A stretch of 64,000 nt of DNA, from positions 67,623 through 131,622 of the forward strand of contig PUHO01000006.1 in NCBI GenBank assembly GCA_002995645.1. Direction: 5' to 3'. The notes below the pieces were generated by a model, which saw nothing but the letters and a program-made list of their open reading frames with translations, was not told where the DNA came from and ran no database searches. The DNA comes from SAR324 cluster bacterium. GTDB lineage: Bacteria; SAR324; XYD2-FULL-50-16; HCM1. The translations under genes were made by a program, and so were the position numbers. This document shows positions 2,847 to 52,354 of this stretch, piece by piece (within the stretch, counting starts at the first letter, position 1; every line of letters starts with the position of its first letter).

Positions 2847-5549
2847 ATGTTACAACAAATTTTTGACTCTGTTTTTGGTAATTTTTCAAAACGAAAGCTT
2901 AAAACCTACCTACCTTTATTAAAAAAGGTGAATGCTCTAGAACAAAAATTCCAAGACTATTCACAAGAACAACTCCAAGAAGCAATTACTCAATTGCAAG
3001 AAAGAGCGAAGAACGGAGCTTCTTCAGAAGAATTATTACCGGAAACTTTTGCGGTTGTTCGCAAAGCCGGCATGGAGACACTACAACAACGCGCTTTTGA
3101 CGTACAAATTCTAGGCGCTATTGCCTTAAACGACGGGCAAATTGCAGAAATGAAAACAGGGGAAGGAAAGACCTTAACTTCCACCTTTCCACTTGTTTTA
3201 CAATCTTTATATGGTAAAGGCGTACATCTTGTTACAGTGAACGACTACCTAGCAGAACGCGATGCCTCTTGGATGGGAGAAATTTACAACTATCTTGGAC
3301 TTACTGTTGGCGTTATTAAACACGATATGGAAGAAACCGCGCGCAGAGAAGCGTATAACGCTGATATTACATACGGAACAAATAACGAATTTGGCTTTGA
3401 TTATCTTCGTGATAACATGAAATTTGATCTTACAGAATACGTTCAAAGAGATCATTTCTATTCTATTGTCGATGAGGTAGACAGCGTTTTAATTGACGAA
3501 GCAAGAACGCCTTTAATTATTTCAGGACCGTCTGAAGACACAACGGAAAACTATTATAAAGTCAATAGTTTTATCACAGGATTAACACGTGGTTGGACAA
3601 AAGGAGACAATCCAAACATTGAAGCAGTTGCTCGTGCTTTAGACAGCGACTCAAAAGCAGCAAAAGAATTCTTACAAACAAAAGAAGACAGTGAACTTGT
3701 TGTTCCCGGTGATTTTACGTTAGATGAAAAAGCAAAAAATATTCAACTAACAGAACAAGGCGTTGAACTTATGGAAAAACGACTTGATTCTTTTTTAAAG
3801 ACTTCTAATTTGTTTGATTTTGAAAACATTGAAATCTTACACCATGTTAACCAAGCTTTAAAAGCACATTATGTTTTTAAACGTAATACTGATTATGTAG
3901 TACAAAACGGGCAGGTTGTGATTGTAGATGAATTCACCGGTCGTTTAATGGAAGGAAGGCGTTTTTCCGAAGGGCTACACCAAGCTTTAGAAGCAAAAGA
4001 AAACGTTAAAATTGAAGCGGAAAACCAAACTTTAGCTTCTATTACGTTTCAAAATTATTTTCGTAAATATACTAAATTAGCAGGTATGACAGGAACAGCA
4101 GAAACAGAAGCCGAAGAATTTAGTAAAATATACGGTCTTGGGGTGGTTGCTATTCCAACAAACAAGCCCATTGCGAGAAAAGACCACGCTGATATTATAT
4201 ATAAAACTATTGACGTCAAAAATAAAGCTATTTGTACTAAAGTTGCTGAACTACATAAAAAAGGGCAACCTGTACTTGTTGGGACAGCGTCTATTGAAAA
4301 TTCAGAATACTTAAGCAGTCAATTTAAAAAACATGCTATTCCGCACAAAATTCTTAACGCTAAATTTCATAAACAAGAAGCAGAAATCATTGCCCAAGCA
4401 GGGAAAAAAGGAGCCGTTACCATTGCAACTAACATGGCGGGACGTGGTACTGATATTAAACTATCAGAAGAAGTGCTTGAACTAGGCGGTTTATTTATTC
4501 TAGGAACAGAACGACACGAATCTAGAAGGATAGATAACCAACTACGCGGGCGCGCCGGACGGCAAGGAGATATGGGAGAAAGCCGTTTCTTTTTATCTTT
4601 AGATGATAACTTGCTTCGTATTTTTGGCGGTGAACGGATTGCTAAATTAATGGATCGCCTACACATAAAAGAAGACGAACCTATTGAACATATGCTTATT
4701 TCAAGAGCCATTGCTTCTTCTCAATCTAAAGTAGAGGCACATAACTTTGATATTCGTAAGCATTTGCTTGAATATGACGACGTCATGAATCGGCAAAGAG
4801 AAATTATTTATAAACAAAGACAACGTATTTTAGGCGAAGACTCGCTTGGCATCTTCACAGAAATGTGTGAAAAAGTGGGCGATTACCTACTAGATACCTA
4901 TTGTGAAAGTAAACATATTGATCAGTGGGATACAGCAGAGCTAGCAAAAGAAATAAAAACTATTTTTGACTTATCTACTTCTCTAGACGAAGAACTTAAT
5001 AGTCTCTCAGCAGAAACGTTTGATACTTGGTTACATGATCAAATTAAAAAGAAGTTAACAGAAAATCTAAATCAATTTGAAGAAGAAATTCAATTACTCT
5101 TGCTAAGACGTATTCAGTTAGAAATAACGGATAACTTTTGGAAAGATCATTTGCTTTCTATGGATCACATGAAAGAAGGCATAGGCATGCAAGGATATGC
5201 ACAAAAAGATCCGCTTACAGAGTATAAAAAAGAAGGATTCACGTTATTTCAAGAATTAATGTCTAGAATAGAACTAGAATGCGTTCAAACTTTCTTTCAC
5301 GTACAATTGCAAGAACAAGAAACTTTATTAAATCACGAATTCAAAACAAACCAGTCTATTGAGCTTCAGCATCAGTCTGTACCTAATTTTGAACAAGAAA
5401 TGCAAGAAGAAACTCCGGTTAAAAAAGTTTCTGTACGAAAACGCGTCTTACCGTCTCGTAATAGTCCTTGTTGGTGTGGTAGTGGTAAAAAATATAAAAA
5501 ATGCCATTGGAATGCCGATCAAGAAATTCAAGAAAATGAAACTACTTAA
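2847..5549 (+). CDS. secA: Preprotein translocase ATPase SecA
   Basis: 900-aa ORF. Walker A MKTGEGKTL, DEVD box DEVDSVLIDEARTPLIISG, C-terminal zinc-binding tail CWCGSGKKYKKCH. Confidence 0.97.
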   Translation: MLQQIFDSVFGNFSKRKLKTYLPLLKKVNALEQKFQDYSQEQLQEAITQLQERAKNGASSEELLPETFAVVRKAGMETLQQRAFDVQILGAIALNDGQIAEMKTGEGKTLTSTFPLVLQSLYGKGVHLVTVNDYLAERDASWMGEIYNYLGLTVGVIKHDMEETARREAYNADITYGTNNEFGFDYLRDNMKFDLTEYVQRDHFYSIVDEVDSVLIDEARTPLIISGPSEDTTENYYKVNSFITGLTRGWTKGDNPNIEAVARALDSDSKAAKEFLQTKEDSELVVPGDFTLDEKAKNIQLTEQGVELMEKRLDSFLKTSNLFDFENIEILHHVNQALKAHYVFKRNTDYVVQNGQVVIVDEFTGRLMEGRRFSEGLHQALEAKENVKIEAENQTLASITFQNYFRKYTKLAGMTGTAETEAEEFSKIYGLGVVAIPTNKPIARKDHADIIYKTIDVKNKAICTKVAELHKKGQPVLVGTASIENSEYLSSQFKKHAIPHKILNAKFHKQEAEIIAQAGKKGAVTIATNMAGRGTDIKLSEEVLELGGLFILGTERHESRRIDNQLRGRAGRQGDMGESRFFLSLDDNLLRIFGGERIAKLMDRLHIKEDEPIEHMLISRAIASSQSKVEAHNFDIRKHLLEYDDVMNRQREIIYKQRQRILGEDSLGIFTEMCEKVGDYLLDTYCESKHIDQWDTAELAKEIKTIFDLSTSLDEELNSLSAETFDTWLHDQIKKKLTENLNQFEEEIQLLLLRRIQLEITDNFWKDHLLSMDHMKEGIGMQGYAQKDPLTEYKKEGFTLFQELMSRIELECVQTFFHVQLQEQETLLNHEFKTNQSIELQHQSVPNFEQEMQEETPVKKVSVRKRVLPSRNSPCWCGSGKKYKKCHWNADQEIQENETT

Positions 5550-5595
5550 CTCGTATTTTTGTACTGATAAAGTAATTTTTCTTAACTGCTAATAT

Positions 5596-5637
5596 AAAAA
5601 AACAAAAGTGAGTAAAATAGCCTCGCTTTTGTTTTTT
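5596..5637. terminator. Bidirectional rho-independent terminator between secA and proS
   Basis: Hairpin AAAACAAAAGTGAG / CTCGCTTTTGTTTT (one G-T wobble) with 9-nt loop TAAAATAGC. It is preceded by an A-run and followed by a T-run, so it can terminate on both strands. Confidence 0.7.
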
Positions 5638-5640
5638 AGT

Positions 5641-5741
5641 AAGATAACCTGTCGTGCCTAGCTTAATAGGCAACAGCAAACAAGGCTTTAATCTTTGTTG
5701 GATTGCCACTCACAACACACGCCCCTTCCTTTGTTTCTTGC
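5641..5741 (-). pseudogene. Detached duplicate of the proS 3' end (22 nt downstream + stop + 76 nt of coding tail)
   Basis: 101 nt identical to 5775-5875 except one mismatch (GGATTGCC vs GGCTTGCC). It is not attached to any upstream ORF. Confidence 0.9.
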
Positions 5742-5744
5742 CCT

Positions 5745-5769
5745 AAATGAAGCTACTTAACTCGTATTT
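5745..5769 (+). repeat. Detached duplicate of the secA 3' end including the stop codon
   Basis: AAATGAAGCTACTTAACTCGTATTT matches 5534-5558 (AAATGAAACTACTTAACTCGTATTT) with one mismatch. Confidence 0.85.
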
Positions 5770-5796
5770 AAGATAAGATAACCTGTCGTGCCTAGC

Positions 5797-7233
5797 TTAA
5801 TAGGCAACAGCAAACAAGGCTTTAATCTTTGTTGGCTTGCCACTCACAACACACGCCCCTTCCTTTGTTTCTTGCGCCACAGGCAAACAACGAATAGTAG
5901 CTTTGGTTTCGTCTTGTATTTGATTAGCAACAGCAGAACTACCGTCCCAATAAGCATATACAAAACCACCTTGTTTAATATATTCTTTAAACTGCTCGTA
6001 GTTCTCAGCATAAAACGTATTTTCTTCTTGGAAAGTACGCGCTTTCTCAAATAAAGCGTTTTGTATATCTTCCAATAAATCCGGGATTTGCGTACCTAAT
6101 TCGTCTATAGGAATAAAATCTTTTTTACGCGTATCACGGCGAACAGCAACAACTATATTTTTTTCTATATCTTTAATACCAATCTCAATACGTAAAGGCG
6201 TACCTTGCTGTATCCATGTAAAAAAGCGATCGCCCGGGCTTAAATGAAATTGCGTATCTAGCTCCACTTTAAGGCTACCAAGTTGCTTTTTCAAAACAGA
6301 AACTACATTATCCGCATAAGCAAGTATCTGCTCTTTTTGTTCTTCTGATTTAACAATAGGAATAACAACAACCGGTCTCGGTGCTAAACGTGGTGGAATA
6401 ATAATACCGTCGTCATCGCCGTGAGTCATAATTAACCCACCAAGAATACGTGTACTCACGCCCCAACTTGTTGTATAAGCATATTGTAATTCATTGTTTT
6501 GATCTGAAAATTGAATCCCAAACGCTTTAGAAAAATTTTGTCCTAAATTATGGCTTGTTCCCATTTGCAAAGCTTTTTTATCTTGCATCAGCGCTTCTAC
6601 TGTATAAGTTGTATCAGCACCCGGAAACTTCTCATGTTCCGGTTTTGCACCGTCAATAACAGGAATAGCACAAACATTTTCTAAAAAATCTTTATATATG
6701 CCTAGCATTTTTTCCGTTTCCTCTTGTGCCTCTTGCGCATTAGCGTGCGCCGTATGCCCTTCTTGCCATAGAAATTCAGAAGTACGTAAAAATAACCTTG
6801 TACGTTTTTCCCAACGCATCACACTACACCACTGATTCATTAACATAGGCAAATCGCGGTAACTTTGTATCCATTGCGCATAGGCATAACCTATAATCGT
6901 TTCCGAACTAGGACGGATAACATATTTTTCTTCTAATTCTTTACCGCCGGCATAGGTAACCATAGCAAGCTCAGGAGCAAAACCTTCCACATGTTCCGCT
7001 TCTTTTGTAATAAACGACTCAGGAATTAACAAAGGAAAATAAGCATTGCGATGTCCTGTTTCTTTAAACTTTGTATCTAAGTAATTTTGCAACGACTCCC
7101 AAATGCTATAGCCGTTAGGCTGGATTATCATACATCCCTTAACCGGCGCATGGGTTGCCAATTTACCTACTTTAATAACGTCTTGATACCATTGAGGAAA
7201 ATTTTCTTTTCTTGGTGTAATGTTTTTTGCCAT
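5797..7233 (-). CDS. proS: Prolyl-tRNA synthetase (archaeal/eukaryote-like short form)
   Basis: 478-aa ORF. Class II ProRS signature SYRDLPMLMNQWCSVMRWE, anticodon-binding and C-terminal zinc-like domain, ends in AY as in this ProRS type. Confidence 0.92.
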   Translation of the reverse strand: MAKNITPRKENFPQWYQDVIKVGKLATHAPVKGCMIIQPNGYSIWESLQNYLDTKFKETGHRNAYFPLLIPESFITKEAEHVEGFAPELAMVTYAGGKELEEKYVIRPSSETIIGYAYAQWIQSYRDLPMLMNQWCSVMRWEKRTRLFLRTSEFLWQEGHTAHANAQEAQEETEKMLGIYKDFLENVCAIPVIDGAKPEHEKFPGADTTYTVEALMQDKKALQMGTSHNLGQNFSKAFGIQFSDQNNELQYAYTTSWGVSTRILGGLIMTHGDDDGIIIPPRLAPRPVVVIPIVKSEEQKEQILAYADNVVSVLKKQLGSLKVELDTQFHLSPGDRFFTWIQQGTPLRIEIGIKDIEKNIVVAVRRDTRKKDFIPIDELGTQIPDLLEDIQNALFEKARTFQEENTFYAENYEQFKEYIKQGGFVYAYWDGSSAVANQIQDETKATIRCLPVAQETKEGACVVSGKPTKIKALFAVAY

Positions 7234-7235: not shown

Positions 7236-8576
7236 TTATTCCCCTTCCAATTTATATATATCCTCTACGCTAACTTTAGCTTTTCCATCTATAAAGTTAA
7301 TAAATAGAGTTTCCTTTTTGATAATGTCGTGTATAGACTGAATTTGATTATTATCTATATTAGAAACAACAATCTTTTTTTGCGCAGCTTTAAGTTTGGG
7401 ATTAGCTAAATATAATCTTTTCTCTAACGCAAAAAGACGTTGCTCTTTAGTGTATATTTTTTGTTTTGTGTTAGCAACAAGTTTAAAAAACTTACTTTCA
7501 TATTGAAAACGTCGTTGTAACAAAAATGAAGTTGCCGTATTTTTTGTAAGCTGGTAGCGATTATCTTGCAATTTCCATAATAAATTTTTACTATATCGAT
7601 CGATCTGCCTACGTAACTGTTCTAATACGTTTTGATTACGTTGTCGTAAAGTTTCTATTTTTTGTACTAAACTACGTTGCATTCTATGCGATATAGAAGC
7701 AAGGTCGGAGTCTCGTTGTGCAAGGAAAGAAGAAAAAGCATATTGTATACGTGTTGTTAACATATCAATACGTTCTTGTAGATCTGTTTGTAAAATAACC
7801 GCTGTTTGCGCCGCTGCCGTTGGCGTAGAAGCGCGTACGTCAGCAACAAAATCGGCAATTGTAAAATCACGTTCATGCCCAATGCCAGTAATCACAGGGA
7901 TAGGCGATTCAAAAATAGCTTGCGCTATATTCCGATCGTTAAAAACGGCTAAATCCTCCATAGCCCCGCCACCGCGTGCTAAAATAATAACGTCAAAATT
8001 ATCTTTTCTTTTAGCAATAGCATACAAAGTTTGCACAATATCTTGCGCAACTGCGGCACCTTGCACAGCCACAGGAAAAAGCGTTGTCTCTACAAACGAA
8101 TTTCTTTGCTCAATAGTACGAAGGATATCGTCCTTAGCCGCACCAGTCATAGAAGTAACAATAGCTATCCGTTTAGCAAACAACGGTAATGCCTTTTTAT
8201 GTATAGCATCAAAATAGCCTTTTGCTTCTAAATCTTTTTTAGTCTGTTCAAATACGAGCTGTAATACACCAGCCCCGCAAGGGTGAAGTTCATCGCAAGT
8301 TAACTGATAAATCCCTCTTTCCGGATACAGTCCAATACGTGCGCGCATAACTACTTCTAATCCGTTTTCAAGGCGAAAAGGTACCGTTTTAGCAACACCG
8401 CGAAACAAAATCACTGCTATTTTAGCTTTTTTATCTTGTAAGTTAAAATAGCAGTGTCCTGCCGCCGATTCTGCAAACGAAATAATCTCTCCTTTAACCC
8501 AAACACTCGTAAAGTTATCTTCTAATAACCCTTTAATACGATATGTAATTTCCTCAACGGACAGAACGTTTTGCAC
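7236..8576 (-). CDS. xseA: Exodeoxyribonuclease VII large subunit
   Basis: 446-aa ORF. N-terminal OB-fold region (VWVKGEIISF...GHCYFNLQDKKAKI), central catalytic region (ARGGGAMEDL, TGIGHERD), long C-terminal coiled coil. Confidence 0.9.
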   Translation of the reverse strand: MQNVLSVEEITYRIKGLLEDNFTSVWVKGEIISFAESAAGHCYFNLQDKKAKIAVILFRGVAKTVPFRLENGLEVVMRARIGLYPERGIYQLTCDELHPCGAGVLQLVFEQTKKDLEAKGYFDAIHKKALPLFAKRIAIVTSMTGAAKDDILRTIEQRNSFVETTLFPVAVQGAAVAQDIVQTLYAIAKRKDNFDVIILARGGGAMEDLAVFNDRNIAQAIFESPIPVITGIGHERDFTIADFVADVRASTPTAAAQTAVILQTDLQERIDMLTTRIQYAFSSFLAQRDSDLASISHRMQRSLVQKIETLRQRNQNVLEQLRRQIDRYSKNLLWKLQDNRYQLTKNTATSFLLQRRFQYESKFFKLVANTKQKIYTKEQRLFALEKRLYLANPKLKAAQKKIVVSNIDNNQIQSIHDIIKKETLFINFIDGKAKVSVEDIYKLEGE

Positions 8577-16968: not shown

Positions 16969-17817
16969 ATGCATTTAAATAATAAATGGAAAGTAATCTT
17001 TTTTACTCTTTTTCTTTCTGTGTTCCTTGCTTCTTGCAATAATATTAAAATTGGATACAACTACGGACATTGGTTTCTCCGTCATTCTGTCTATAAATAT
17101 ACTAATTTAAACTCTTCGCAAGTACGTTTACTAGAACAACAATTTCAAAGTTTTCTTGATTATAATAAGAAATACGATATTCCTAATTATATTGCTCTTT
17201 TACGACATATAAAACGACTCTCTAGCCATAAAGAAGCAACAGAACAAGCATTGGAAGAAATAACGTTAGATGCGCAAACACTGACTTACGCTGCTTTTGA
17301 ATCGTTCATAGACCATGCCGTACCAGTGATACAAACATTATCACCAAAACAAATACAAGAAATTAGAGAGAGTATTAGTGACAAATTTGACGAACGTATT
17401 GAAGAATATGAAGACAAGACACTAGAAGAAAGGCAAGATAAGCGTTTTAATCAGTTACTAGATCGCTTTGCAACCTATATGGGAGACTTAAACGAAGAAC
17501 AACAAAAACTGTTAAGAGACCGCGTTAATCTTATGCATTTCGTAACGGTAGAACAAGAAAAAGAAAGGAAACAATTCTCACTAGAGTGGCTTGATAAACT
17601 AGAAAAAGCACAAAAAGATAAACAGGAGCTTACTAGCTTGTTAAAAAGCCGCCTATTCTCCGTTGCGATTACAGAGTATAATAGAAGATGGATTCATTTT
17701 TATTTAGCTTTACAAAAAACAGCAACACAAAAACAAATCGACGGCTTTCAAAAGAAACTGCAAAATATTATAGATCCGCTACAAGACTTACATCAAGAAG
17801 CAATTAAGAAGATTTAA
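16969..17817 (+). CDS. Lipoprotein, possibly DUF6279-like
   Basis: 282-aa ORF. Lipobox FLASC. The N-terminal pattern C-x-IKIGYNYGHWFL...LNSSQ...L...F resembles the DUF6279 lipoprotein family as I remember it. Confidence 0.5.
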   Translation: MHLNNKWKVIFFTLFLSVFLASCNNIKIGYNYGHWFLRHSVYKYTNLNSSQVRLLEQQFQSFLDYNKKYDIPNYIALLRHIKRLSSHKEATEQALEEITLDAQTLTYAAFESFIDHAVPVIQTLSPKQIQEIRESISDKFDERIEEYEDKTLEERQDKRFNQLLDRFATYMGDLNEEQQKLLRDRVNLMHFVTVEQEKERKQFSLEWLDKLEKAQKDKQELTSLLKSRLFSVAITEYNRRWIHFYLALQKTATQKQIDGFQKKLQNIIDPLQDLHQEAIKKI

Positions 17818-18616
17818 GCCAATAAGAAGAAATTAAATCAGATGTAATCGGATCCCCTGTTTTCCAAAATCCAAGCCGAGCGTCCGGCTTATTAGCACCG
17901 TGAAAATCAGATCCAGCAGTAATTAGCAAATTATGTTTTGCAACTAACCCTTTAAAAATAGCAATCTCTTCTTCAGTATGTCTTCCTGAGTAGACTTCTA
18001 AAGCATCTAAGCCATATGCCACACATGCTTCAATGGTAGCAACACAAGTATCTTTGTCTTTGCTTATAGTCGTAGGATGAGCTATCACCGCTTTGCCGCC
18101 GGCTTCGTGCACTAAATTAATAGCATCTTGCGCACTAATATGCCCTTCATTTTTAAACTCTTTTAGATATTCGTCAAAAGAAACGCGTAAAGGAATATTA
18201 TGTTGATCTCTTAATAAGATAGCCATATGAAAACGTCCGTATGCAACTTCCGGCAAAAATGCAAACGCAACGTTTAAGTCATATTTATCTTTAACATGTT
18301 GCAACATGGCTTTCATTCGTTTTGTTCTTAAATCTATAGCTTCTTTTAGCGCTTGTTGCAAACGTTTGTTTGCAGGATCAATTCCTAATCCTAATAAATG
18401 AAATAGCCCTTCTGAAGCATCTATGGTTATCTCTACGCCTAAAATCGGACGTATTTGATATGCGGCACATGCTTTTTGAAAATCTAATAAACCCGCTACG
18501 TTATCATGATCTGTTAAAGCAAGTGTTTTAAGCCCCCTTCCTTTAGCCAATTGAGCTAAGTCTTTTGGTGAGGAAGTGCCGTCTGAAAAATAAGAATGCG
18601 CATGTAAATCAAGCAT
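17804..18616 (-). CDS. PHP-domain phosphoesterase (TrpH/YciV-like)
   Basis: 270-aa ORF. N-terminal DLHAHSYFSDG metal-binding motif and C-terminal GSDFHG. Its 3' end overlaps the convergent lipoprotein gene by 14 nt. Confidence 0.88.
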   Translation of the reverse strand: MLDLHAHSYFSDGTSSPKDLAQLAKGRGLKTLALTDHDNVAGLLDFQKACAAYQIRPILGVEITIDASEGLFHLLGLGIDPANKRLQQALKEAIDLRTKRMKAMLQHVKDKYDLNVAFAFLPEVAYGRFHMAILLRDQHNIPLRVSFDEYLKEFKNEGHISAQDAINLVHEAGGKAVIAHPTTISKDKDTCVATIEACVAYGLDALEVYSGRHTEEEIAIFKGLVAKHNLLITAGSDFHGANKPDARLGFWKTGDPITSDLISSYWLKSS

Positions 18617-29166: not shown

Positions 29167-29193
29167 ATATCCCTTTTCTATAAATATCTAAAA

Positions 29194-29751
29194 CTAGCGT
29201 ACTGTGTGGCGTAAATAGTTTACAAGATCCCAACGCTCTTTCTCTGTCATAGCATTACCTAAAGGCGGCATAATAGCGCCGGAACCATAGGTTGCTTTAT
29301 AAAAAATATAGCCGTCAGATAAAGCAGGAAGCATAGGCGTAAGGTACATTGCCATCATGCCCTTTTGATTAACTTTGCTATCGCCAAGCCCTGCTTTGTT
29401 CGGTTTTTGTAAGTTTCCATGACATACTTGGCAATATACGTGGTACATATATTCCCCGTCAGCAATAGACTCTTTTGTTGGTTTAATTGGATTTTTAGTT
29501 GTCGTAGTTGGCATTGCTTCTCTTGCAATCCATGAAGTTAATACAGTTGTATCACCTACGTTACGATATACTTTTCCTTTTCTCGTTACACTATCTATAG
29601 GAAAATGAAGCATACTGCCTTGCTCTTGTGGCTTAATATTTTTTTGATTATACATATCTGTAATTAAAACCATTAAAGCCGATTTCGCAAATAAACTTCC
29701 TGTTGTTAATATTAATATAAGAAAAGTTATAACTACCCATTTATTTTTCAC
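29194..29751 (-). CDS. actE: Alternative complex III monoheme cytochrome c subunit ActE
   Basis: 185-aa ORF with signal peptide and a single CQVCHG heme motif. Position after actD. Confidence 0.8.
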   Translation of the reverse strand: MKNKWVVITFLILILTTGSLFAKSALMVLITDMYNQKNIKPQEQGSMLHFPIDSVTRKGKVYRNVGDTTVLTSWIAREAMPTTTTKNPIKPTKESIADGEYMYHVYCQVCHGNLQKPNKAGLGDSKVNQKGMMAMYLTPMLPALSDGYIFYKATYGSGAIMPPLGNAMTEKERWDLVNYLRHTVR

Positions 29752-30271
29752 AATAAATCTCCTCTGCTTGGTAAGATTGAAAGATAGCTTGTATATCTTT
29801 TATTTCTTCTTCTTTACAAGGAACAACAACGCCAAAGCGATCGCGCATAAAACGAGTATAATCGCGATAGGTCTTGCTAGTAGGAAATAAATGCTTTTTG
29901 TGACTTCGATAAATTAAAAGTAGCATACCTATAACGGTTGCTTCTACTGCCATAATAACGGTTGCTTCGAATATTATGGGAATAGAAGAAGGAATAGAAA
30001 TAATTGACTTTTCTGAAACAGGTAAAATCCAATCTAGCGTTGCCATACATATTAAAAACGTAGCAAAAAAACAGCCCTTCAATCCACCAATAAGAGAGAA
30101 GAAAGGAACGCGACTTTGCGGGTTGCCAAGTGCTTCTTCAATTTCATGTTGCGGAAACGGTGAATGCGTTGTTATCCCCTTAAAGTTTGCCTTTCGCAAG
30201 CTAGTAATGGAATCACACGTATCGTCTAAAAATGCAAACGTAGCCCATACGCCTATAAATTTTTTTTTCAT
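29741..30271 (-). CDS. actD: Alternative complex III membrane subunit ActD (DUF3341-like)
   Basis: 176-aa ORF. N-terminal soluble part (GVWATF...THSPFPQHEIEEALG) followed by two TM helices. Position between actC and actE. Confidence 0.75.
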   Translation of the reverse strand: MKKKFIGVWATFAFLDDTCDSITSLRKANFKGITTHSPFPQHEIEEALGNPQSRVPFFSLIGGLKGCFFATFLICMATLDWILPVSEKSIISIPSSIPIIFEATVIMAVEATVIGMLLLIYRSHKKHLFPTSKTYRDYTRFMRDRFGVVVPCKEEEIKDIQAIFQSYQAEEIYCEK

Positions 30272-30274
30272 AGT

Positions 30275-31591: not shown

Positions 31592-31592
31592 A

Positions 31593-34500
31593 CTATCTCC
31601 TATACGTTTGCTTTTTATGTTTCACCTTCTTAAGATAGGTAACTGCAGGCTTAAAATTTAACTCTTCTAACTGTTTATAGCCGCGCTGCGTTGTTTGTAT
31701 TTCTTTAGTTAATTGACTGTTTGAATCAGCACGATTACCAAATATAATAGCGTTTGCTCCGCAAGCTTGTTGGCAAGCCGGTTGAATTTCATGATCATAC
31801 ACTATTCTATTTTCTTCTTTTGCGATCGCTTGCTTTTCTCTAATACGAGCATAACAAAAATTACATTTTTCCATAACGCCTTTTTCGCGAACGCTAACGT
31901 CCGGATTGAGTTGTAAATGTAGCGGTTTTGGAAATTCATAAGTACGCCAATTAAACCGTCTTTGCTTATACACACAGTTATTAGCACAATATCTTGTTCC
32001 AACACAACGATTATACACCATTGCATTAATCCCGTCCGGCGTATGATACGTTGCATACACAGGGCAAACAGTTTCACAACCTGCATTATCACACTGCGCG
32101 CACATTTGCGGGAAGTGTTGCACTTCTATAGCGCCTGTTTGAGCATCTTGCTCTATAAACCTTTCAATACGTAGCCAATGCATTTCCCTTCCTGTTGCAA
32201 CGCGATCTTTACCCACAACAGGCACGTTGTTTTCCGCTTGGCAAGCAATAACGCAAGCACTGCAACCACTGCATTTATCTAAGTCAATTAGCATTTCAAA
32301 CTTATACGGGCTATGATATTTTGGCGTATTATTTTCTCCTTTCAGCGCTTTTGCTTCTTCCACATTATGTGGCGTCGTATTATATAAATTCGTATTTTTT
32401 TGTCTATTTGTCGTAAAATACCGCACATGGTGATCTCTTTCTTTTTTTGCATAACTACCTAACTGACTTAAGCTAATAGTTTGCATTAAATCCCTTTGCT
32501 TTTGCGAACGATCAGGCATGCCCATTGGTCTATTAAGTTGTTTTTCATATAAATCCGTACGTTCTAGCCCGTCTAAACTAACTAAGTCCGCTTTTTCTGC
32601 CGTTCCTTTTGCCGTTACGACACGCGCATAAATCAAGTCGCCTGTTTCTGTGGTTTCACAACGAAAAAGATCCATAGGATTTAACCCTACTTTCTGGTTT
32701 TTAATTTGCAAATCATATTTTCTTTCAATATGAGCTAAGAAACTACTTTTATTACGTGTAGAAATATAACTTGGCAAAGGAACGTTACGTCCTAATCCGG
32801 TTGGCATAATTAATACGTTATCTGCTACGCCGTCATGAAGCCACGCTCCTACTTGCATTGTTGTTTGTTCTGTTTTAATTTCAACAAGGAAACCCTGTTC
32901 TACGCCTAGTTTTTTTGCTGTTGTTGGATTCATTTCAACCCAACTTCCCCAAACAAGTTGCGTTAACGGATGCGGCGCTTCTAAAAGCCACGATTTATTA
33001 CCGTTAATACCGTTTGCATTATGAAAAATACTATTAACTGCTAATAGCTGTATTTTTTCTTTTTCTAGTTTTTGCGGTTTAATCTGAAAAATGGATTTAT
33101 AAGAGAAGCTAACTACTTCTTTTTTAGTCGGCACAACGTACACGCCTTTTTGCAATGTTTTTTCCCAGAAGCTTTCAAAATCAATTGGATTAATCCCTAA
33201 TTTGAGATTTCGCCACTGTGTTTTTAAGTATTCTTTATAATTTGTTTCTTTTCTATCAGCAAGCACGTCTAATTCTTGCCCAACGCTAAGCATTAAATCA
33301 CCAATACTTTTTGTATTATATCCCGGGACTTTCGCCATAACCGGTTGTTGCAAACTATAAACGCCATTACAAGGAAACGAATCGCCCCAGCTTTCTAAAA
33401 AATGAGAAGTAGGCATTTGTAAATGCGCTTTTCTTGCCGTTTCGTCTTGTTCTGTAGATAAAGAAACAACGTACTTTGCTTTTGCCAGGGCTTTTTCTAC
33501 TTCAATTGATTTTGGCAAACTAAACAAAGGATTCACATTTTCAATAATCACTAACTCATATTTTCCGTCACGTATATTATCAAATGCTTGTTTAATACCG
33601 CTTAAAGAAGCGCTTTGGTATTGGTAATCTGCACCAAAAACAATACGTTCATTAATCGCACCGGTTATATAGTTCAGCAAATTAACGGCTAGTTGTAAAT
33701 TGTCTGCTTGCTTTGTTGCTACGTCGTTTCCACCGGCAAGAACAATAGGTCTCTTTGCTGCGGCTATTTCTTTTGCTAAAAAACTTAATTTCTGTTTTGC
33801 AATACCTGTAACGTTATGCACATATTCTAAAGAGTAGGTTTTTAGAAATGAAGCTATTTCTTCTTTACCTTCTATGTCTTTATTTGTTGTATTAAATAGA
33901 GAAGAGGCAAGGAATAAAGCAACGTACACTTCCCCGCCAACAGGGCAAGCAAACCAATGATCCGCATTCGCCGCACTTTGACTTATATGCGCTCCAACAT
34001 GTATATACTTTCCTTTTGCACCTTGTTTATATGAATGCATTTGCGCAAATCCACGAGAAAGCTTTTCTGTATACAACCAACTTTCTAAAAAATCAGCACC
34101 AAAATTCAAAAGGAGATCCGCTTTTTCTAGTTGTATTTCGGGGATTTCATATTTATTAAACGAAGCTTGATTAGCAAACATATTAGATTTAACAGGCAAC
34201 ATGTCTAAAGTCATATATTGCCCGTGCATTGTTTCCACAACGCGTTGTATTAAATCGTATATACTACCGGTACGCCTTTTGCCTATATATAATATAGAGC
34301 CTTTCGCTTCTTGCATCTTGCTAACAAGTTTTGTTTGCGCTTCTTTCCAAGTTAAGCTTTTGATCTGCTCTTTTTCAAACTCATTCGGTCCGGTTATACG
34401 ATTAGGATTATATAACCCTTGCAAAATAGCTTGCACAGAAGCACTTGCGCTTCCTTGACTTAAAGGATGATCCGGATTGCCTTCTATTTTAATAGCCCTT

Positions 34501-34712
34501 CCTTCTCTAGTTTTAACAACAATACCTATATCGCCATGATCTTCCGACGTAGTTGCAAAATAAATAGGCTTGCCCACAACGTAATCTGTTGGCGGATTTA
34601 ACATAGGAATAATAGTTTCAACCGGATCTTTAGTACAACCTACTAAAGCCGCCGCCGCTCCACTTGTTGCCGCTACTTTAAAGAAATTTCTTCGATTCAT
34701 TCCTTTTTTCAT
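31593..34712 (-). CDS. actB: Alternative complex III subunit ActB (fused molybdopterin-oxidoreductase-like and 4Fe-4S ferredoxin domains)
   Basis: 1039-aa ORF. Tat signal MNRRNFFKVAATSGAAAALVGC. C-terminal Fe-S cysteine clusters CSGCSACVIAC, CAQCDNAGCETVCP, CVGTRYCANNC, CNFCYARI. Confidence 0.9.
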   Translation of the reverse strand: MKKGMNRRNFFKVAATSGAAAALVGCTKDPVETIIPMLNPPTDYVVGKPIYFATTSEDHGDIGIVVKTREGRAIKIEGNPDHPLSQGSASASVQAILQGLYNPNRITGPNEFEKEQIKSLTWKEAQTKLVSKMQEAKGSILYIGKRRTGSIYDLIQRVVETMHGQYMTLDMLPVKSNMFANQASFNKYEIPEIQLEKADLLLNFGADFLESWLYTEKLSRGFAQMHSYKQGAKGKYIHVGAHISQSAANADHWFACPVGGEVYVALFLASSLFNTTNKDIEGKEEIASFLKTYSLEYVHNVTGIAKQKLSFLAKEIAAAKRPIVLAGGNDVATKQADNLQLAVNLLNYITGAINERIVFGADYQYQSASLSGIKQAFDNIRDGKYELVIIENVNPLFSLPKSIEVEKALAKAKYVVSLSTEQDETARKAHLQMPTSHFLESWGDSFPCNGVYSLQQPVMAKVPGYNTKSIGDLMLSVGQELDVLADRKETNYKEYLKTQWRNLKLGINPIDFESFWEKTLQKGVYVVPTKKEVVSFSYKSIFQIKPQKLEKEKIQLLAVNSIFHNANGINGNKSWLLEAPHPLTQLVWGSWVEMNPTTAKKLGVEQGFLVEIKTEQTTMQVGAWLHDGVADNVLIMPTGLGRNVPLPSYISTRNKSSFLAHIERKYDLQIKNQKVGLNPMDLFRCETTETGDLIYARVVTAKGTAEKADLVSLDGLERTDLYEKQLNRPMGMPDRSQKQRDLMQTISLSQLGSYAKKERDHHVRYFTTNRQKNTNLYNTTPHNVEEAKALKGENNTPKYHSPYKFEMLIDLDKCSGCSACVIACQAENNVPVVGKDRVATGREMHWLRIERFIEQDAQTGAIEVQHFPQMCAQCDNAGCETVCPVYATYHTPDGINAMVYNRCVGTRYCANNCVYKQRRFNWRTYEFPKPLHLQLNPDVSVREKGVMEKCNFCYARIREKQAIAKEENRIVYDHEIQPACQQACGANAIIFGNRADSNSQLTKEIQTTQRGYKQLEELNFKPAVTYLKKVKHKKQTYRR

Positions 34713-34734
34713 AATATATCCCTACTTAATACTC

Positions 34735-35385
34735 TTATTTATGACAAGCCAAACAATCAGTTGATCCTTTTATATAATGAAGCACACCGTGTGTATTTAA
34801 TTCTGCTTTTGCTTTATCTTTTTTATTTTTATCTACAAAAGCGCCGCCTCTGGTTATCCTTAACGGGATAATTACTTTTTTATTTTTAACGGCATGTTTT
34901 TTTCTATGACATTCTACGCACCATTTCATACTTAAATCAGCTTTCATTGTTTTTATTGTAATCTTTTCTCGATCCCGTATTTCACCGTGACATTGAGTAC
35001 AATCAAAACCGGCTTTAATATGTCTTTCATGTGAAAAATAAACAAAGTCGGGCAAGTCATGGATTTTCTTCCATAAAATTGGTTTTTTCTTTTCCCAATA
35101 TTGTTTTAATTTTTTAATTTGCGTTTGTTGTTCTTTTGTTGTTCCTTGCACAAGCGCATGGCACCCCATACAGGTTCGCACAGAAGGAATCGAAGCAACA
35201 GACGAACGCCTTGCCGTGGTATGGCAAAACTCACATGCTATTTCATTTTGTTTTGCATGCGTTTTATGGCTAAAAGCAATTGGTTGCCGTATTTCCGTGG
35301 CATAGGCGTTGTTTAACAAAAAAACCGTAAAAAACAAGAAAATACTAATAAAGCTTGTTTTGTATATAATATTGTATATTTGCAT
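34735..35385 (-). CDS. actA: Alternative complex III pentaheme cytochrome c subunit ActA
   Basis: Five CxxCH motifs (CEFCH, CMGCH, CTQCH, CVECH, CLACH). The ORF is open to 35433, but MQIYNIIYKTSFISIFLFF... (ATG 35385) gives a proper signal anchor. Confidence 0.85.
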   Translation of the reverse strand: MQIYNIIYKTSFISIFLFFTVFLLNNAYATEIRQPIAFSHKTHAKQNEIACEFCHTTARRSSVASIPSVRTCMGCHALVQGTTKEQQTQIKKLKQYWEKKKPILWKKIHDLPDFVYFSHERHIKAGFDCTQCHGEIRDREKITIKTMKADLSMKWCVECHRKKHAVKNKKVIIPLRITRGGAFVDKNKKDKAKAELNTHGVLHYIKGSTDCLACHK

Positions 35386-35697
35386 AGATTTTTTATAAAA
35401 ATAATAAAGAACGTGTCTTTTTATTTCTAACAAACCGGCAATATAAAATCAAGTTTTAAATGCCCCTTGTTCTAGTATATCTTTAATTTATTTATTTAAA
35501 ATTGTTCTTGCATTTATAGTACTTATTATGTTTATAATTGTTTTTAATAACTATGAAACATATATTTAATTTATAGTTATTTAAAAAAAAGTTTGACTTT
35601 ATATTTCTATTATTATATTTTGTAGGCATGTTTATATTATATAAAAGTTTTATAAGCTACACTTGATAAATTTAAAGAATATCAAATGGCACGCTTT

Positions 35698-37122: not shown

Positions 37123-37156
37123 CCGGCTAGAGCATTTTGCTTTAGCCGGTTTTTTT
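37123..37156 (+). terminator. Rho-independent terminator of the porin gene
   Basis: 11-bp stem CCGGCTAGAGC / GCTTTAGCCGG (one G-T wobble), 5-nt loop ATTTT, followed by a run of 7 T. Confidence 0.85.
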
Positions 37157-37160: not shown

Positions 37161-39626
37161 CTTCTCGTAACCGCTTTATAATCCCGCACTACTTCAGTTA
37201 AAAACGAGGTATCGCAAACCGGCTTCTTGTACTCCCTCCGCAAGCATTTCTCTAGTCGCTTATCTTGCAAGTTATATTACCCTCTCGCAAACACTGCTTA
37301 AAACAATAATAAAGGCGTGCCCTTCCTTCGTTTAGAGTTATAACCCACTCTCATACGAACACTACTTTAAGCAAGGAAGAGAACCACAATGCAAGCCGTC
37401 TTCTTTTACGCCCTCCGCAAGCTCTTCTCTACTCGCTTATCTTGTAAGTTATATTACTCTCTCGCAAACACTGCTTTAATCCCTAATGCTATCACTATAT
37501 AAACTTACTCTATAACCTCGCCTATAAGAGATTGCAGGTTAGTACTATTTTACTTCTTTGTTTTGATGTGGAAGAGGGGAAGCTTTATTTATATCATCAC
37601 TATATAAAGCTATGCTGGAAGTTTAGTTGCCTAGTTTCAGGCTTTGCAAAAGAAAGATCATTCATAATGCAAGCCGGCTTCTTTTATAAGCCCCCTGCAA
37701 TCTCTTTTCTACTCGCTTATCTTGCAAGTTATATTACTTTCTCGCAAATGCTTTTTCAATCAAGACGTTCACGCTTGCCAGCTTTACTTGCGTCCAATCT
37801 CCACACAAGCACTGCTTTAATCTCTATCGCTAGCACTATATAAACTTACTCTATAACCCTGCCTATAAGAGATTGAAGGTTAGTACTATTTTACTTCTTG
37901 CTTTTGATGTGGAAGAGAGGAAGCTTTATTTATATCATCACTATATAAAGCTATGATTGCCTAGTTTCAGGCGTTGCAAGAGGAAGATAACCGCAAGCCG
38001 GCTTCTTTTACGCCCTCCGCAAACTCGTCTCTACTCGCTTATCTTGCAAGTTATATTACTCCCTCGCAAATGCTTCTCTAGTCGCTTATCTTGTCAGTTA
38101 TATTACTCTCTCGCAAATGCTTTTTCAGTCAAGGCGTTCACGTTTGCCAGCTTTACTTGCGTCCAATCTCCACACAAGCACTATATAAACTTACTCTATA
38201 ATCTCGCCTATAAGAGATTGCAGGTTAGTACTATTTTACTTCTTTGTTTTGATATGGAAGAGGGGAAGCTTTATTTATATCATCACTCTATAAAGCTATG
38301 ATTGCATATTTTCAGGCGTTGCAAAAGGAAGAGAACCGCAATGCAAGCCGGCTTTTTTACGCCCCCTGCAATCTCTTTTCTACTCGCTTATCTTGCAAGT
38401 TATATTACTCTCTCGCAAGCTCTTTTCTAGCCGCTTATCTTGTAAGTTATATTACTCTCTCGCAAGCTCTTTTCTACTCGCTTATCTTGTAAATTATATT
38501 ACTCTATCGCAAATGCTTTTTCAGTCAAGGCGTTCACGTTTGCCAGCTTTACTTGCGTCTAATCTCCCACACTCAAGCACTGCTTTAATCCCTAATGCTA
38601 TCACTATATAAACTTACTCTATAACCTCGCCTATAATAGATTGAAGGTTAGTACTATTTTACTTCTTTGTTTTGATATGGAAGAAGGGAAGCTTTATTTA
38701 TATCATCACTATATAAAGCTATGCTAGAAGTTTGCTTGCCTAGTTTCAGGCTTTGCAAAAGGAAGAGAACCGCAATGCAAGCCGGCTTCTTTTATAAGCC
38801 CCCCCGCAAACTCTTCTCTAATCGCTTATCTTGCAAGTTATATTACTCTCTCGCAAGCACTGCTTTAATCTCTAGCACTATATAAACTTACTCTATAACC
38901 CCGCCTATAAGAAATTGAAGGTTAGTACTATTTTACTTCTTGCTTTTGATGTGGAAGAGGGGAAGCTTTATTTATATCATCATAAAGCTATGCTGGTAGT
39001 TTGCTTGCCTAGTTTCAAGCGTTGCAAAAGGAAGAGCATTCATAATGCAAGCCGGCTTTTTTACGCCCTCCGCAAGCACTTCTCTACTCGCTTATCTTGC
39101 AAGCTATATTACTCTCTCGCAAACTCTTCTCTAGTCGCTTATCTTGTAAGTTATATTACTCTCTCGCAAGCACTGCTTTAATCCCTAATGCTAGCACTAT
39201 ATAAACTTACTCTATAACCCCGCCTATAATAGATTGCAGGTTAGTACTATTTTACTTCTTTGTTTTGATGTGGAAAAGGGGAAGCTTCATTTATATCATC
39301 ACTATATAAAGCTATGCTGGTAGTTTGGTTGCCTAGTTTCAGGCTTTGCAAAAGAGAGAGCATCGCAAGCCGGCTTCTTTTACGCCCTCCGCAAGCTCTT
39401 CTCTAGTCGCTTATCTTGCAAGTTATATTACTTTCTCGCAAGCACTGCTTTAATCTCTAGCGCTATCAGTATATAAACTTACTCTATAACCTCGTCTATA
39501 AGAGATTGCAGGTTAGTACTATTTTACTTCTTGGTTTTGATATGGAAGAGGGGAAGCTTTATTTATATCATCACTATATAAAGCTATGCTAGGAATTTGG
39601 TTGCCTAGTTTCAGGCGTTGCAAAAA
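37161..39626. repeat. Roughly 2.5-kb hierarchical (higher-order) non-coding tandem repeat array
   Basis: Seven units whose A module (CTTACTCTATAAC...) starts at 37504, 37845, 38190, 38613, 38887, 39206 and 39478, preceded by a degenerate leader (37161-37503). Unit length varies (341, 345, 423, 274, 319, 272 bp) through 1-3 copies of a 47-bp sub-repeat and an optional module of about 61 bp. Confidence 0.95.
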
Positions 39627-39653
39627 AATCTTTACTTCTTTGAAGAAACAAAG
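39622..39653 (-). terminator. Rho-independent terminator of the tRNA-Lys/tRNA-Glu operon
   Basis: On the minus strand: CTTTGTTTC-TTCAAA-GAAGTAAAG (9-bp stem with two G-U pairs) followed by ATTTTTTT. It lies about 75 nt downstream of tRNA-Glu. Confidence 0.65.
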
Positions 39654-39726
39654 CTTATAACATAGTAAAATACTACGTAGTAATTGCAAAATAATAAAAT
39701 GTACGTGGAATGAGCAAGAAAAATTG

Positions 39727-39799
39727 CATCCCCAAGGGGATTCGAACCCCTGCCGTCGCCGTGAAAGGGCGATGTCCTAGGCCTCTAGACGATGGGGAC
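39727..39799 (-). tRNA. tRNA-Glu (anticodon UUC)
   Basis: Reverse complement GTCCCCATCGTCTAGAGGCCTAGGACATCGCCCTTTCACGGCGACGGCAGGGGTTCGAATCCCCTTGGGGATG folds into a cloverleaf. Anticodon loop CTTTCAC, T-loop TTCGAAT. CCA is not encoded. Confidence 0.93.
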
Positions 39800-39818
39800 A
39801 CTATAGCAAGCAGTATAT

Positions 39819-39894
39819 TGGTGAGCCGAGCGGGGATCGAACCCACGACAACCTGATTAAAAGTCAGATGCTCTACCAACTGAGCTACCGGCCC
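39819..39894 (-). tRNA. tRNA-Lys (anticodon UUU)
   Basis: Reverse complement GGGCCGGTAGCTCAGTTGGTAGAGCATCTGACTTTTAATCAGGTTGTCGTGGGTTCGATCCCCGCTCGGCTCACCA. Anticodon loop CTTTTAA, T-loop TTCGATC. CCA is encoded. Confidence 0.93.
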
Positions 39895-50257: not shown

Positions 50258-50280
50258 GAATATTTTTAGCTATTTTCTTT

Positions 50281-50815
50281 TTAGATCTTTAGCGATTGGT
50301 CTAGATTCCTATATGGCAACGCTTCGGCAAGGTGTTCTGTTTGTATTGATTCGCTATTTTCCAGATCGGCAATCGTACGACTCACCTTCAAAATACTATC
50401 GTACCCCCCGTCCGCTTAGCTTAAGTTTACTAACTGCTAATTGCAAAAGGGCTTCGCTTTGCTTATCTAACTTATTATAGTTTTGATTTTATTTCTTACA
50501 ATTAGAATTCTAGCGCTCTGTCTAGGTTCCTATATTGCAATGCTTCGGCAAGGTGCTCTGTTTGTATTGATTCGCTATTTTCCAGATCGGCAATTGTACG
50601 ACTCACTTTCAAAATACTATCGTACCCCCGTCCGCTTAGCTTAAGCTTACTAACTGCTAATTGCAAAAGGGATTCGCTTTGTTTATTTAGCTTGTTTTGA
50701 TTTTATTTGTTACAATTAGAATTCTAACGCTCTGTCCAGATTCCTATATTACAACGCTTCGGCAAGGTGCTTTGCTTTGTTTATCTAGTTTGTTATGATT
50801 TTGAATTTGTTACAA
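50281..50815 (-). pseudogene. Three detached tandem copies (one internally deleted) of the comM 3' end
   Basis: Copies of the stop-codon region TTAGAATTCTA... start at 50281 (most diverged), 50502 and 50716 (about 115 nt internally deleted). The functional copy starts at 50816. Each full unit is about 215 bp: 6 nt downstream plus about 210 nt of coding tail. Confidence 0.9.
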
Positions 50816-52354
50816 TTAGAATTCTAACGATCTGTCTAGATTCCTATATTGCAATGCTTCGGCAAGGTGTTCTGTTTGTATCGCTTCGCTATTTTCTAAA
50901 TCGGCAATCGTACGACTCACTTTCAAAATACTATCGTACCCCCGTCCGCTTAGCTTAAGCTTACTAACTGCTAATTGCAAAAGTGATTCGCTTTGTTTAT
51001 CTAGCTTGCAATAGTTTTGAATTTGCTTCGCTTTTAACAATCCGTTACGAAGCGTTTCATTTTGATATCTATCTTTTTGTTTTTGGCTAGCTTGGATTAC
51101 TTTCTCTTTCATCTGCTTACTAGAAGTAAACGAGGTTGTTGCTTGCCTTGCATCGGTTGAAATCACAGGCACTTCAATTTGCAAATCAATTCTATCTAGT
51201 AACGGACCGGATAAACGACTACGATACCGCGTGATTTGAGTCACACTGCAACGGCATTCATGATCGGCATCACCTAAATAACCACAAGGGCAAGGATTGG
51301 TGGCGGCTATTAATTGAAAATCAGCAGGGAACACAAAACTATCTTTTGCTCGTGTAATTGTAATTTGTTTATCCTCTAGCGGTTGCCTTAGCAAGTCTAA
51401 TGTAGCGCGCGAATATTCAGCTAATTCATCAAGAAATAAAACGCCATGATGTGCTAATGAAACTTCGCCAGCTCGTGGCGTACTTCCCCCTCCAACTAAG
51501 CCGGCACCGGAAACAGAATGGTGCGGCGTACGAAAAGGGCGTGTAATACGTTGTAAATCTTCTGTGGTAAATCCGTAATATAAAGAATAAATTTTTGCGA
51601 CTTGCAGTATTTCATCATAAGAAAGAGGTGACAAAATCGAAGGAAACCTACTAGCTAGCATAGATTTGCCCGATCCCGGTGGTCCTATTAATAAAATATG
51701 ATGTCTTCCTGCTGCTGCAATTTCTAAAGCGCGTTTTGCCTGTATATGCCCTTTAACATCGGCATAATCAAGCTCATTAGTGTGTCCTAGATTCTGTTTC
51801 AGGACGTCCTGTAAAGTGTCCTGGTATGATTCCAATACTTTTTCTTCTGTGTAAAAATCGATAATATCCTTAAGCGTATCAGCTATATAGATATCCATTT
51901 CCGGGACTATTGCCGCAACAGGTGCGTTCTCTCTAGGAAGGATACAAGTTTTTATGCCCTGTTTTTTTGCCTCCATTAACATAGCTAATATCCCGGCAAC
52001 AGGACGTATTCTACCTTGTAAAGAAAGCTCCCCAACTAAGAGCGTATTCTCTCCGCTTGTTGCAGGTAATCGTTTATCCGCTTTCAGAATTGCAATCGCT
52101 ATTGGCAAATCAAATCCGGTTCCGCCTTTACTTAATCCGGCAGGGGCAAGGTTCACCACAACGCGGCGAATAGGGAATCCGCCGGCTACATTAGACAGGC
52201 TTGCTGTTACACGCTCTCTACTTTCGCGAATAGCATGATCTGGCAAACCTACAATTTGAAACGCCCCTAAGCCAATAGAAACGTCAGCTTCCACTTCTAT
52301 AATATGAGCCTCAATTCCTATAACGGTTGCTGTATAGGTTATTATCTCGCTCAT
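50816..52354 (-). CDS. comM: Mg-chelatase-like AAA+ protein ComM/YifB
   Basis: 512-aa ORF. N-terminal Lon-protease-like domain, Walker A GPPGSGKSM, Walker B VLFLDEL, zinc-like CPCGYLGDADHECRC insertion. Confidence 0.93.
   Translation of the reverse strand: MSEIITYTATVIGIEAHIIEVEADVSIGLGAFQIVGLPDHAIRESRERVTASLSNVAGGFPIRRVVVNLAPAGLSKGGTGFDLPIAIAILKADKRLPATSGENTLLVGELSLQGRIRPVAGILAMLMEAKKQGIKTCILPRENAPVAAIVPEMDIYIADTLKDIIDFYTEEKVLESYQDTLQDVLKQNLGHTNELDYADVKGHIQAKRALEIAAAGRHHILLIGPPGSGKSMLASRFPSILSPLSYDEILQVAKIYSLYYGFTTEDLQRITRPFRTPHHSVSGAGLVGGGSTPRAGEVSLAHHGVLFLDELAEYSRATLDLLRQPLEDKQITITRAKDSFVFPADFQLIAATNPCPCGYLGDADHECRCSVTQITRYRSRLSGPLLDRIDLQIEVPVISTDARQATTSFTSSKQMKEKVIQASQKQKDRYQNETLRNGLLKAKQIQNYCKLDKQSESLLQLAVSKLKLSGRGYDSILKVSRTIADLENSEAIQTEHLAEALQYRNLDRSLEF

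Follow-up and report, generated by a model that had tools for sequence, protein, structure and literature searches.

Local tandem duplication and survival of gene tails as the probable origin of four repeat arrays in a compact bacterial chromosome segment

A 64-kb stretch of contig PUHO01000006.1 (hereafter the window, i.e., the whole stretch of DNA that was analyzed) is a low guanine-plus-cytosine (GC, ~35%) piece of bacterial chromosome with ordinary housekeeping genes, in which four arrays of repeated DNA lie next to gene 3′ ends. They occupy the spacers between secA and proS (locus 1), comF and actF (locus 2), a gene for a porin-like protein and a tRNA-Lys/tRNA-Glu pair (locus 3), and comM and gatA (locus 4), with coordinates given in Table 1. 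We performed a self-BLAST of the whole window and independently ran Tandem Repeats Finder (TRF) and a repeat finder. Repeated DNA was detected by self-BLAST at exactly these four loci and nowhere else in the 64 kb, with E-values of 1e-35 to 0 for the array alignments, and the two other programs concurred. The arrays consist of head-to-tail copies that abut one another, uninterrupted by unrelated DNA. At loci 1, 2, and 4, the units are tails of the adjacent genes, each locus having its own unit, and no word of at least 12 nt is common to different loci within the window, which led us to reject a common boundary motif or element. An interspersed repeat family of the repetitive extragenic palindromic (REP), miniature inverted-repeat transposable element (MITE), or Correia type was also rejected, as no unit recurs at several unlinked places within the 64 kb, and so was an array of clustered regularly interspaced short palindromic repeats (CRISPR), as the units abut without unique spacers.

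At the secA/proS junction, the extra proS end matches the gene-attached spacer and proS tail at 99% identity with an offset of 134 nt (E-value of 1e-35 in the self-BLAST). Since copies of both gene ends are present, the whole convergent junction has been duplicated, and the second junction copy gives an ancestral stop-to-stop distance of ~36 nt between secA and proS. ProS itself is full length, with positions 2 to 475 of the 475-position profile matched. As a separate observation, this ProS (5797-7233, minus strand) is assigned by TIGR00408 (553 bits) to type I, the archaeal/eukaryote-like form, the common bacterial form being type II.

The comF/actF array contains 6.05 copies of a 155-nt unit at 94-97% identity, each unit combining the ~27-36 nt comF/actF spacer with the last ~40 codons of actF. 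The first unit starts within the last three codons of comF (CAT ACG TAA; comF stop at 27072-27074). The original prediction had described this locus as an amplification of a gene tail and its downstream spacer only; tail and spacer are indeed amplified, but the unit starts 6 nt before the comF stop, making this a whole-junction duplication as well. The array measures 6 x 155 + 7 nt and is bounded by short arms (CATA..TAA), with CATATAA on the right, inside actF, and CATACGTAA on the left, at the stop of comF. The reconstructed ancestral convergent spacer is ~27 nt, and no intrinsic terminator was detected in the comF/actF spacer. The real ActF tail stops exactly where its homologues end, and the protein is full length by comparison with them. 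At residue 397, glycine is found in the real gene and in 8/8 aligned homologues, compared with valine in 5/5 extra tails. As this valine is common to all extra tails, they must descend from one mutated founder copy or have been homogenized among themselves, and the array was therefore formed in more than one step. Furthermore, non-adjacent units have variant sites in common, a mosaic pattern that indicates repeated unequal exchange. The extra units (27084-27867, minus strand) each retain an ATG-initiated, hydrophobic open reading frame (ORF) of ~32 codons (MLSLFILCFVYMMTKV...), and a weak promoter-like site (TTAATA-17-TATGAT, 9/12 matches) lies just upstream of this predicted small ORF; annotation pipelines could call such ORFs as predicted small membrane proteins.

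The porin/tRNA array is longer (2.4 kb) and more heterogeneous, with units that are 63-93% identical, each holding one to three copies of a 47-nt sub-repeat and, in some, an optional module of ~65 nt. It ends ~70 nt downstream of tRNA-Glu, and no similarity to the tRNAs was found in the self-BLAST of the window. An Rfam search returned the two tRNAs as its sole matches, with the array units matching no family. Folding of a unit gave no signal relative to shuffled sequence on either strand (z of -0.40 and +0.84), and promoter-like and terminator-like sites in and around the array occurred at chance level. A functional-RNA reading of this array was rejected on these three grounds, and a coding reading was rejected because the units are of lengths not divisible by three and a Pfam search gave no match for either of its two ORFs. 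The 47-nt sub-repeat (37256-39433) contains a near-palindrome, TATCTTGCAAG.TATA, with 12 occurrences, a candidate protein-binding site as judged by symmetry alone. On the far side of the tRNA pair, a perfect sigma-70 consensus promoter (TTGACA-17-TATAAT, 39939-39911, minus strand) lies directly upstream of the two genes.

The comM array differs in setting, as it lies upstream of gatA (start at 50189) on the same strand, i.e., in a co-directional junction. A promoter-like site (50257-50229) is found just upstream of gatA, and no intrinsic terminator was detected in the comM/gatA spacer. The 114-nt deletion in the third copy falls between two short similar sequences. Comparison of the real comM tail with the second copy revealed six synonymous and three non-synonymous changes, a count that rests on very few sites. 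Because the extra actF copies carry the Gly-to-Val change and the comM copies a frameshift and a deletion, the extra copies are decaying pseudo-tails that behave as unconstrained DNA, and the gene-attached copies are constrained.

As a background, we used 80 unrelated loci fetched with SecA from diverse bacteria, for a total of 1.33 Mb. By the same self-BLAST criterion, only three local duplications were found in these 1.33 Mb, compared with four in the 64-kb window. TRF coverage was 4.3% in the window versus 0.39% in the control, or 4.1% versus 0.14% for periods of at least 40 nt, so that the tandem repeat content of the window is ~10-30 times that of the control loci. The control tandem duplications lie in high-GC contigs in which ORF calls are too ambiguous to place them relative to genes. 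At their BLAST limits, the arrays total ~4.4 kb; they take up 6.9% of the window and account for ~60% of the non-coding DNA in it. They are the largest spacers of a segment that is ~90% coding (~96% without the arrays) and in which co-directional spacers have a median of 16 nt. The window also holds a single intragenic tandem repeat, a 96-nt (32-codon) in-frame duplication at 55388-55579 with 74% identity. Its host gene (54871-56364, plus strand) encodes a 497-amino acid protein in which an N-terminal zinc-ribbon domain and a membrane-anchored C-terminal part accompany a long acidic stretch where 'D/N-LFS-T/P-x-x-E' motifs recur.

Expanded junctions are unevenly distributed, being found at 3/5 convergent, 1/38 co-directional, and 0/4 divergent junctions. 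From the window's junction counts, the hypergeometric probability of at least three arrays in convergent junctions is P = 0.0024, a post hoc value. These counts agree with the original prediction, which had listed five convergent junctions, three of them expanded; the two others measure -14 and +20 nt. The former is the 14-nt 3′ overlap between a DUF6279 gene (16969-17817, plus strand) and a PHP-domain gene (17804-18616, minus strand), an example of the tightness of convergent junctions in the unexpanded state. The prediction had also held that the four arrays are independent, that gene 3′ tails are amplified, and that no gene is disrupted. Self-BLAST detected no similarity between the four loci, three of the four arrays carry copies of gene tails, and all array-flanking genes are full length, with SecA, ProS, and ComM matching their family profiles end to end and ActF its homologues. 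Moreover, the copies differ in age as had been proposed, with 99% identity at secA/proS and 94-97% at actF versus 85-94% at comM.

We then removed the extra copies and simulated duplications of 134-300 nt at every position of the window. Of the placements, 72-85% were intragenic, 10-22% included a 5′ end, 3.5-5% comprised tails only, and 1-2% fell wholly within a spacer; ~95% would break a gene or create a second copy of a 5′ end. The three gene-derived arrays actually observed all belong to the tail-only classes, and the fourth is spacer-only. In such a compact segment, nearly any duplication of 130-350 nt would have at least one endpoint inside a gene. Intragenic duplications would insert into the gene and 5′-end duplications would yield a promoter-driven truncated gene, and selection would be expected to remove both. 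A duplication across a stop codon, and above all across two facing stops, would leave each gene with one complete copy and add merely promoter-less, start-less tail fragments. Since tail-only duplications keep every gene intact, selection alone would give the 3′ pattern. The 3′ anchoring is best read as survivorship, i.e., what purifying selection would leave from untargeted duplication, and a mechanism specific to 3′ ends is unneeded. The original prediction had considered an undescribed mechanism acting on gene 3′ termini, a need for which is not supported in view of the random-placement simulation and the described precedents. In keeping with the filter's prediction, the one tandem repeat found within a gene preserves the reading frame. 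The convergent enrichment fits the filter if selection also acts against tail arrays inside operons, since such arrays place untranslated RNA ahead of the following gene; comM/gatA, the single co-directional case, has its promoter-like site just upstream of gatA.

Taken together, these data make it probable that the arrays are four independent, locally generated tandem duplications, comparable to minisatellites or to tandem repeats of variable number (VNTRs) and filtered by survival, and not copies of an element. Replication slippage, or template switching from one short sequence to a similar one, could have produced a first duplication, i.e., by microhomology-mediated tandem duplication. Once two copies were present, unequal homologous exchange or slippage could add, remove, and homogenize copies, for which the first duplication would offer 130-350 nt of perfect homology as a substrate. 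Point mutations, frameshifts, and internal deletions would then erode the copies not attached to a gene. The geometry of the actF array (n x 155 + 7 nt, with short arms) is as expected for microhomology-mediated tandem duplication and would fit this route, which a preprint reports as the dominant one to tandem duplications and repeats in bacteria and other organisms (bioRxiv 10.64898/2026.02.28.708716). Among the four candidate explanations put forward in the original prediction, replication or repair slippage is the best supported, given the microhomology arms of the actF array, its mosaic units, and the deletion derivative in the comM array. We infer slippage and unequal exchange as the molecular route, together with a selective filter and a copy number that may still be changing.

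Several points weigh against this interpretation. The filter does not explain the 10-30-fold excess over control loci, and either frequent duplication or weak selection has to be postulated beside it. Among tolerated placements, the simulation gives a ratio of single-tail to convergent duplications of ~4:1, compared with 1:2 among the gene-derived arrays observed, the observed numbers being small. Microhomology arms are clear for the actF array alone, with boundaries elsewhere that are diverged or complex. The secA/proS locus needs a second event, either the gain or the loss of the 80-nt segment that carries the terminator. The porin/tRNA array holds no recognizable gene tail and fits the 3′-tail theme by position alone. 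Finally, the arrays are known from a single assembly.

The arrays are embedded in a set of genes comprising copA, secA, proS, xseA (7236-8576), ilvC/ilvB, an IclR regulator, an ATP-binding cassette (ABC) transporter, skp-fabZ-lpxA-lpxB, comF, actA-F (the alternative complex III operon), the porin-like outer-membrane protein, tRNA-Lys/tRNA-Glu, fbaA, a tetratricopeptide repeat (TPR) protein, a bactofilin, pheST, gatA, comM/yifB, sucCD, and mdh. With ilvBC, alternative complex III, and lipopolysaccharide synthesis, this set looks like that of a free-living bacterium. The actA-actF operon (27877-35433, minus strand) is complete, its six genes encoding a multihaem cytochrome, a 1039-amino acid molybdopterin/iron-sulfur subunit, an NrfD-like ActC, ActD, a mono-haem cytochrome, and ActF. 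The protein called ActF in the original prediction has 429 amino acids and hundreds of homologues of ~434 amino acids, labelled molybdopterin oxidoreductase or NrfD-like, the nearest being 52% identical among 5.8 billion proteins; its gene stands at the end of an operon that also encodes an ActD domain protein. In a scan of genome contigs with SecA, the closest sequences (61-63% identity) came from Lambdaproteobacteria/SAR324-like metagenome-assembled genomes (MAGs). All five window proteins that were looked up (5/5) are singletons in clustering at 90% identity, and no close relative of the host organism was found in any collection searched. Three SecA relatives were inspected, and all have co-directional genes 3′ of secA with no convergent partner, so that the ancestral secA junction cannot be read from them. 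Scanning metagenome contigs with 23-24-nt words from the porin/tRNA array and from the actF unit gave no match. Almost all 2-kb bins of the window have a negative GC skew, the cumulative curve of the skew drops steadily, and the minus strand carries ~2/3 of the genes; the window probably sits within one replichore, with the minus strand as the leading strand and with neither origin nor terminus.

Table 1. Positions of the array components and adjoining features in the window.
Feature	Positions	Strand	Description
Locus 1, secA/proS junction	5534-5875		
Real secA 3′ end	5534-5558	+	Last codons, TAA at 5547-5549, and 9 nt more; template of the 25-nt copy
Unique 80-nt segment	5560-5639		Between the secA stop and the proS-tail copy
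Bidirectional intrinsic-terminator-like hairpin	5597-5637		16-nt arms, 94% complementary; 9-nt loop; A-run 5′, T-run 3′
Extra proS end	5640-5741	-	23 nt of spacer and last 79 nt of proS (26 codons and stop)
Extra secA end with TAA	5745-5769	+	24/25 positions identical to 5534-5558
Gene-attached spacer and real proS 3′ tail	5774-5875	-	proS stop at 5797-5799
Locus 2, actF-tail array	27066-28002	-	Six 155-nt units in register and a 7-nt partial unit (CATATAA)
Real actF tail (last unit)	27841-27995	-	actF stop at 27877-27879
Intrinsic terminator of the porin-like gene	37123-37149	+	12-bp stem, then T7; left limit of the locus 3 spacer
Locus 3, higher-order non-coding array	37200-39658		Seven complete units (268-434 nt) and an incomplete one
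tRNA-Lys(UUU)/tRNA-Glu(UUC) operon	39726-39894	-	3′ end faces the locus 3 array
Locus 4, comM (yifB) tail array	50259-51029	-	~3.5 copies of a unit made up of the final 214 nt of comM and 22 nt more, 85-94% identity
comM-array unit 1	50263-50480		Frameshift, diverged stop region
comM-array unit 2	50481-50693		Reading frame kept
comM-array unit 3	50694-50793		Short, 114-nt internal deletion
comM-array unit 4 (real tail)	50794-51029		comM stop at 50816-50818

Duplication might instead be targeted to these junctions, with replication forks stalling at the 3′ end of a head-on gene in a convergent, terminator-poor junction and a template-switch restart duplicating the DNA there. The negative GC skew and the strand bias of the genes suggest that forks move from right to left. 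With that direction, the amplified tails (proS, actF, comM, and the tRNA operon side) are probably all in co-oriented genes, and three arrays border on head-on genes (secA, comF, and the porin-like gene) at their 3′ ends. The enrichment of convergent junctions (3/5 versus 1/42 others) and the failure to detect an intrinsic terminator in the comF/actF and comM/gatA spacers point the same way. However, two convergent junctions of equal geometry are unexpanded, comM and gatA, which flank the fourth array, do not converge, terminators are present at the secA/proS and porin junctions, skew is the sole basis for the replication direction, and the selective filter predicts a like enrichment with no targeting; we consider such a process unlikely. 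A similarly low probability is given to positive selection for spacers, which would have kept the arrays as room for termination (e.g., by Rho), as protection from collision or antisense read-through, or as longer and more stable 3′ untranslated regions (UTRs). The short ancestral convergent spacers at comF/actF and secA/proS, the lack of terminator-like sites in the comF/actF and comM/gatA spacers, and the size of the arrays relative to all other spacers are compatible with this idea, but the remaining two pairs of convergent genes manage with an overlap of 14 nt and a spacer of 20 nt, the units show no structure or family signal, and the copies decay like neutral DNA. The two ideas can be combined into a lineage with unusually active duplication focused on convergent ends, whose tail arrays would be kept as insulating spacers or 3′ UTRs in a form of directed genome growth, a scenario that we regard as quite improbable.

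Three further explanations are given still lower probabilities. The contig could be part of a MAG in which strain variants or mis-joined reads were laid in tandem, and the source is indeed a single NCBI contig of 141 kb with no close relatives, repeats being a known cause of assembly error (PMC9879509). Yet assemblers usually collapse tandem repeats and seldom create them, the copies carry their own substitutions, a frameshift, and a 114-nt deletion, and all four arrays are well inside the contig with clean boundaries at stop codons. It would also be odd for four such errors to leave each gene unharmed, and an artefact is thus very unlikely. Only slightly more doubtful is the possibility that the units, mainly those of the porin/tRNA array, are small-RNA genes or protein-binding-site arrays that are useful in multiple copies. 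The 12 near-palindromes of the 47-nt sub-repeat and the persistence of recognizable units in an older array (63-93% identity) would be in line with such a function, but no Rfam family reaches threshold, folding is no better than that of shuffled sequence on both strands, promoter-like and terminator-like sites stay at chance, no metagenome contig matches, and unit length and composition vary freely. Integrative elements are known to duplicate the 3′ ends of their target genes. Campbell-type integration had been among the candidates of the original prediction; in this view, elements attaching in a gene or tRNA 3′ end bring a tail that replaces the original, so that a duplicated tail remains, and the porin/tRNA array does adjoin two tRNA genes. 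This explanation was nonetheless rejected and retains next to no credibility, as there is neither an integrase or transposase among the window proteins nor foreign DNA between copies, which are directly adjacent, strictly head to tail, at a fixed period, and up to six in a row; moreover, the array beside the tRNAs is unlike them, and no sequence is common to the loci.

If the load seen here (~7% of the sequence, ~60% of the non-coding DNA) extends genome-wide, the organism would stand beside Ehrlichia ruminantium as the bacterium richest in tandem repeats, although it belongs to an unrelated lineage, is densely coding, and has genes of a free-living type. Repeats of this kind would then be less firmly tied to obligate intracellular life. 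The window illustrates purifying selection shaping where structural mutations persist in a compact genome, offering a null model to be considered before mechanisms specific to 3′ ends are invoked. The arrays are also potential high-resolution strain markers. For annotation, tail copies may be called as spurious small ORFs or pseudogenes, and similar caution applies to short-read assembly.

The nearest described counterparts are those of E. ruminantium and Wolbachia, in both of which tandem repeats with periods of ~100-300 nt lie between genes (PMC10710844, PMC3287509). A TRF survey (PMC3287509) puts tandem repeats at 6.3% of E. ruminantium, a share described there as unsurpassed among published bacterial values, and at 0.38% of E. 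coli; the E. ruminantium repeats average 139 nt in period and 4.8 in copy number. E. ruminantium resembles our window in having many independent non-coding arrays, with periods of ~100-350 nt and several copies each (Collins et al. 2005 and Frutos et al. 2006, cited in PMC10710844 and PMC3287509). The loads are also alike, at 6.3% of its genome versus 6.9% of this window. Collins et al. reportedly associated truncated gene fragments with the E. ruminantium repeats. The differences are nevertheless clear: E. ruminantium belongs to the Rickettsiales, whereas the host here lies near Lambdaproteobacteria/SAR324-like MAGs by SecA and is set apart by its free-living-type gene set, and the coding fraction is ~64% there versus 90% here. 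Furthermore, copy-number variability defines the repeats there, whereas the arrays here are known from one assembly.

The VNTR-105 and VNTR-141 loci of Wolbachia (PMC3287509) are likewise intergenic, with periods above 100 nt, unit-internal deletions, and higher-order structure. They have been ascribed to slipped-strand mispairing and concerted evolution, and slippage or unequal recombination is also the explanation given for the Ehrlichia arrays (PMC3287509). The Wolbachia VNTRs are, however, not described as built from flanking gene tails, and hairpins are proposed there as slippage triggers, whereas the units here show weak inverted repeats. Microhomology-mediated tandem duplication (bioRxiv 10.64898/2026.02.28.708716) shares with the actF array the short identical arms that bound a segment and the possibility of multi-copy expansion, although it is a general mutational route and not a class of loci. 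Borg extrachromosomal elements (PMC9879509) offer a further parallel, with pervasive tandem repeats that arose independently and a similar selective logic, since their intragenic repeat units are always divisible by three and some of their intergenic arrays start in an ORF end. Borg units are, however, ~20-50 nt long, perfect, and A-rich, unlike the imperfect units of 134-434 nt found here on a bacterial chromosome. Altogether, the pattern is real and non-random, and we class the four arrays with the intergenic tandem-duplication arrays of the Ehrlichia/Wolbachia type, here in a compact genome from an unrelated lineage that has been little sampled.

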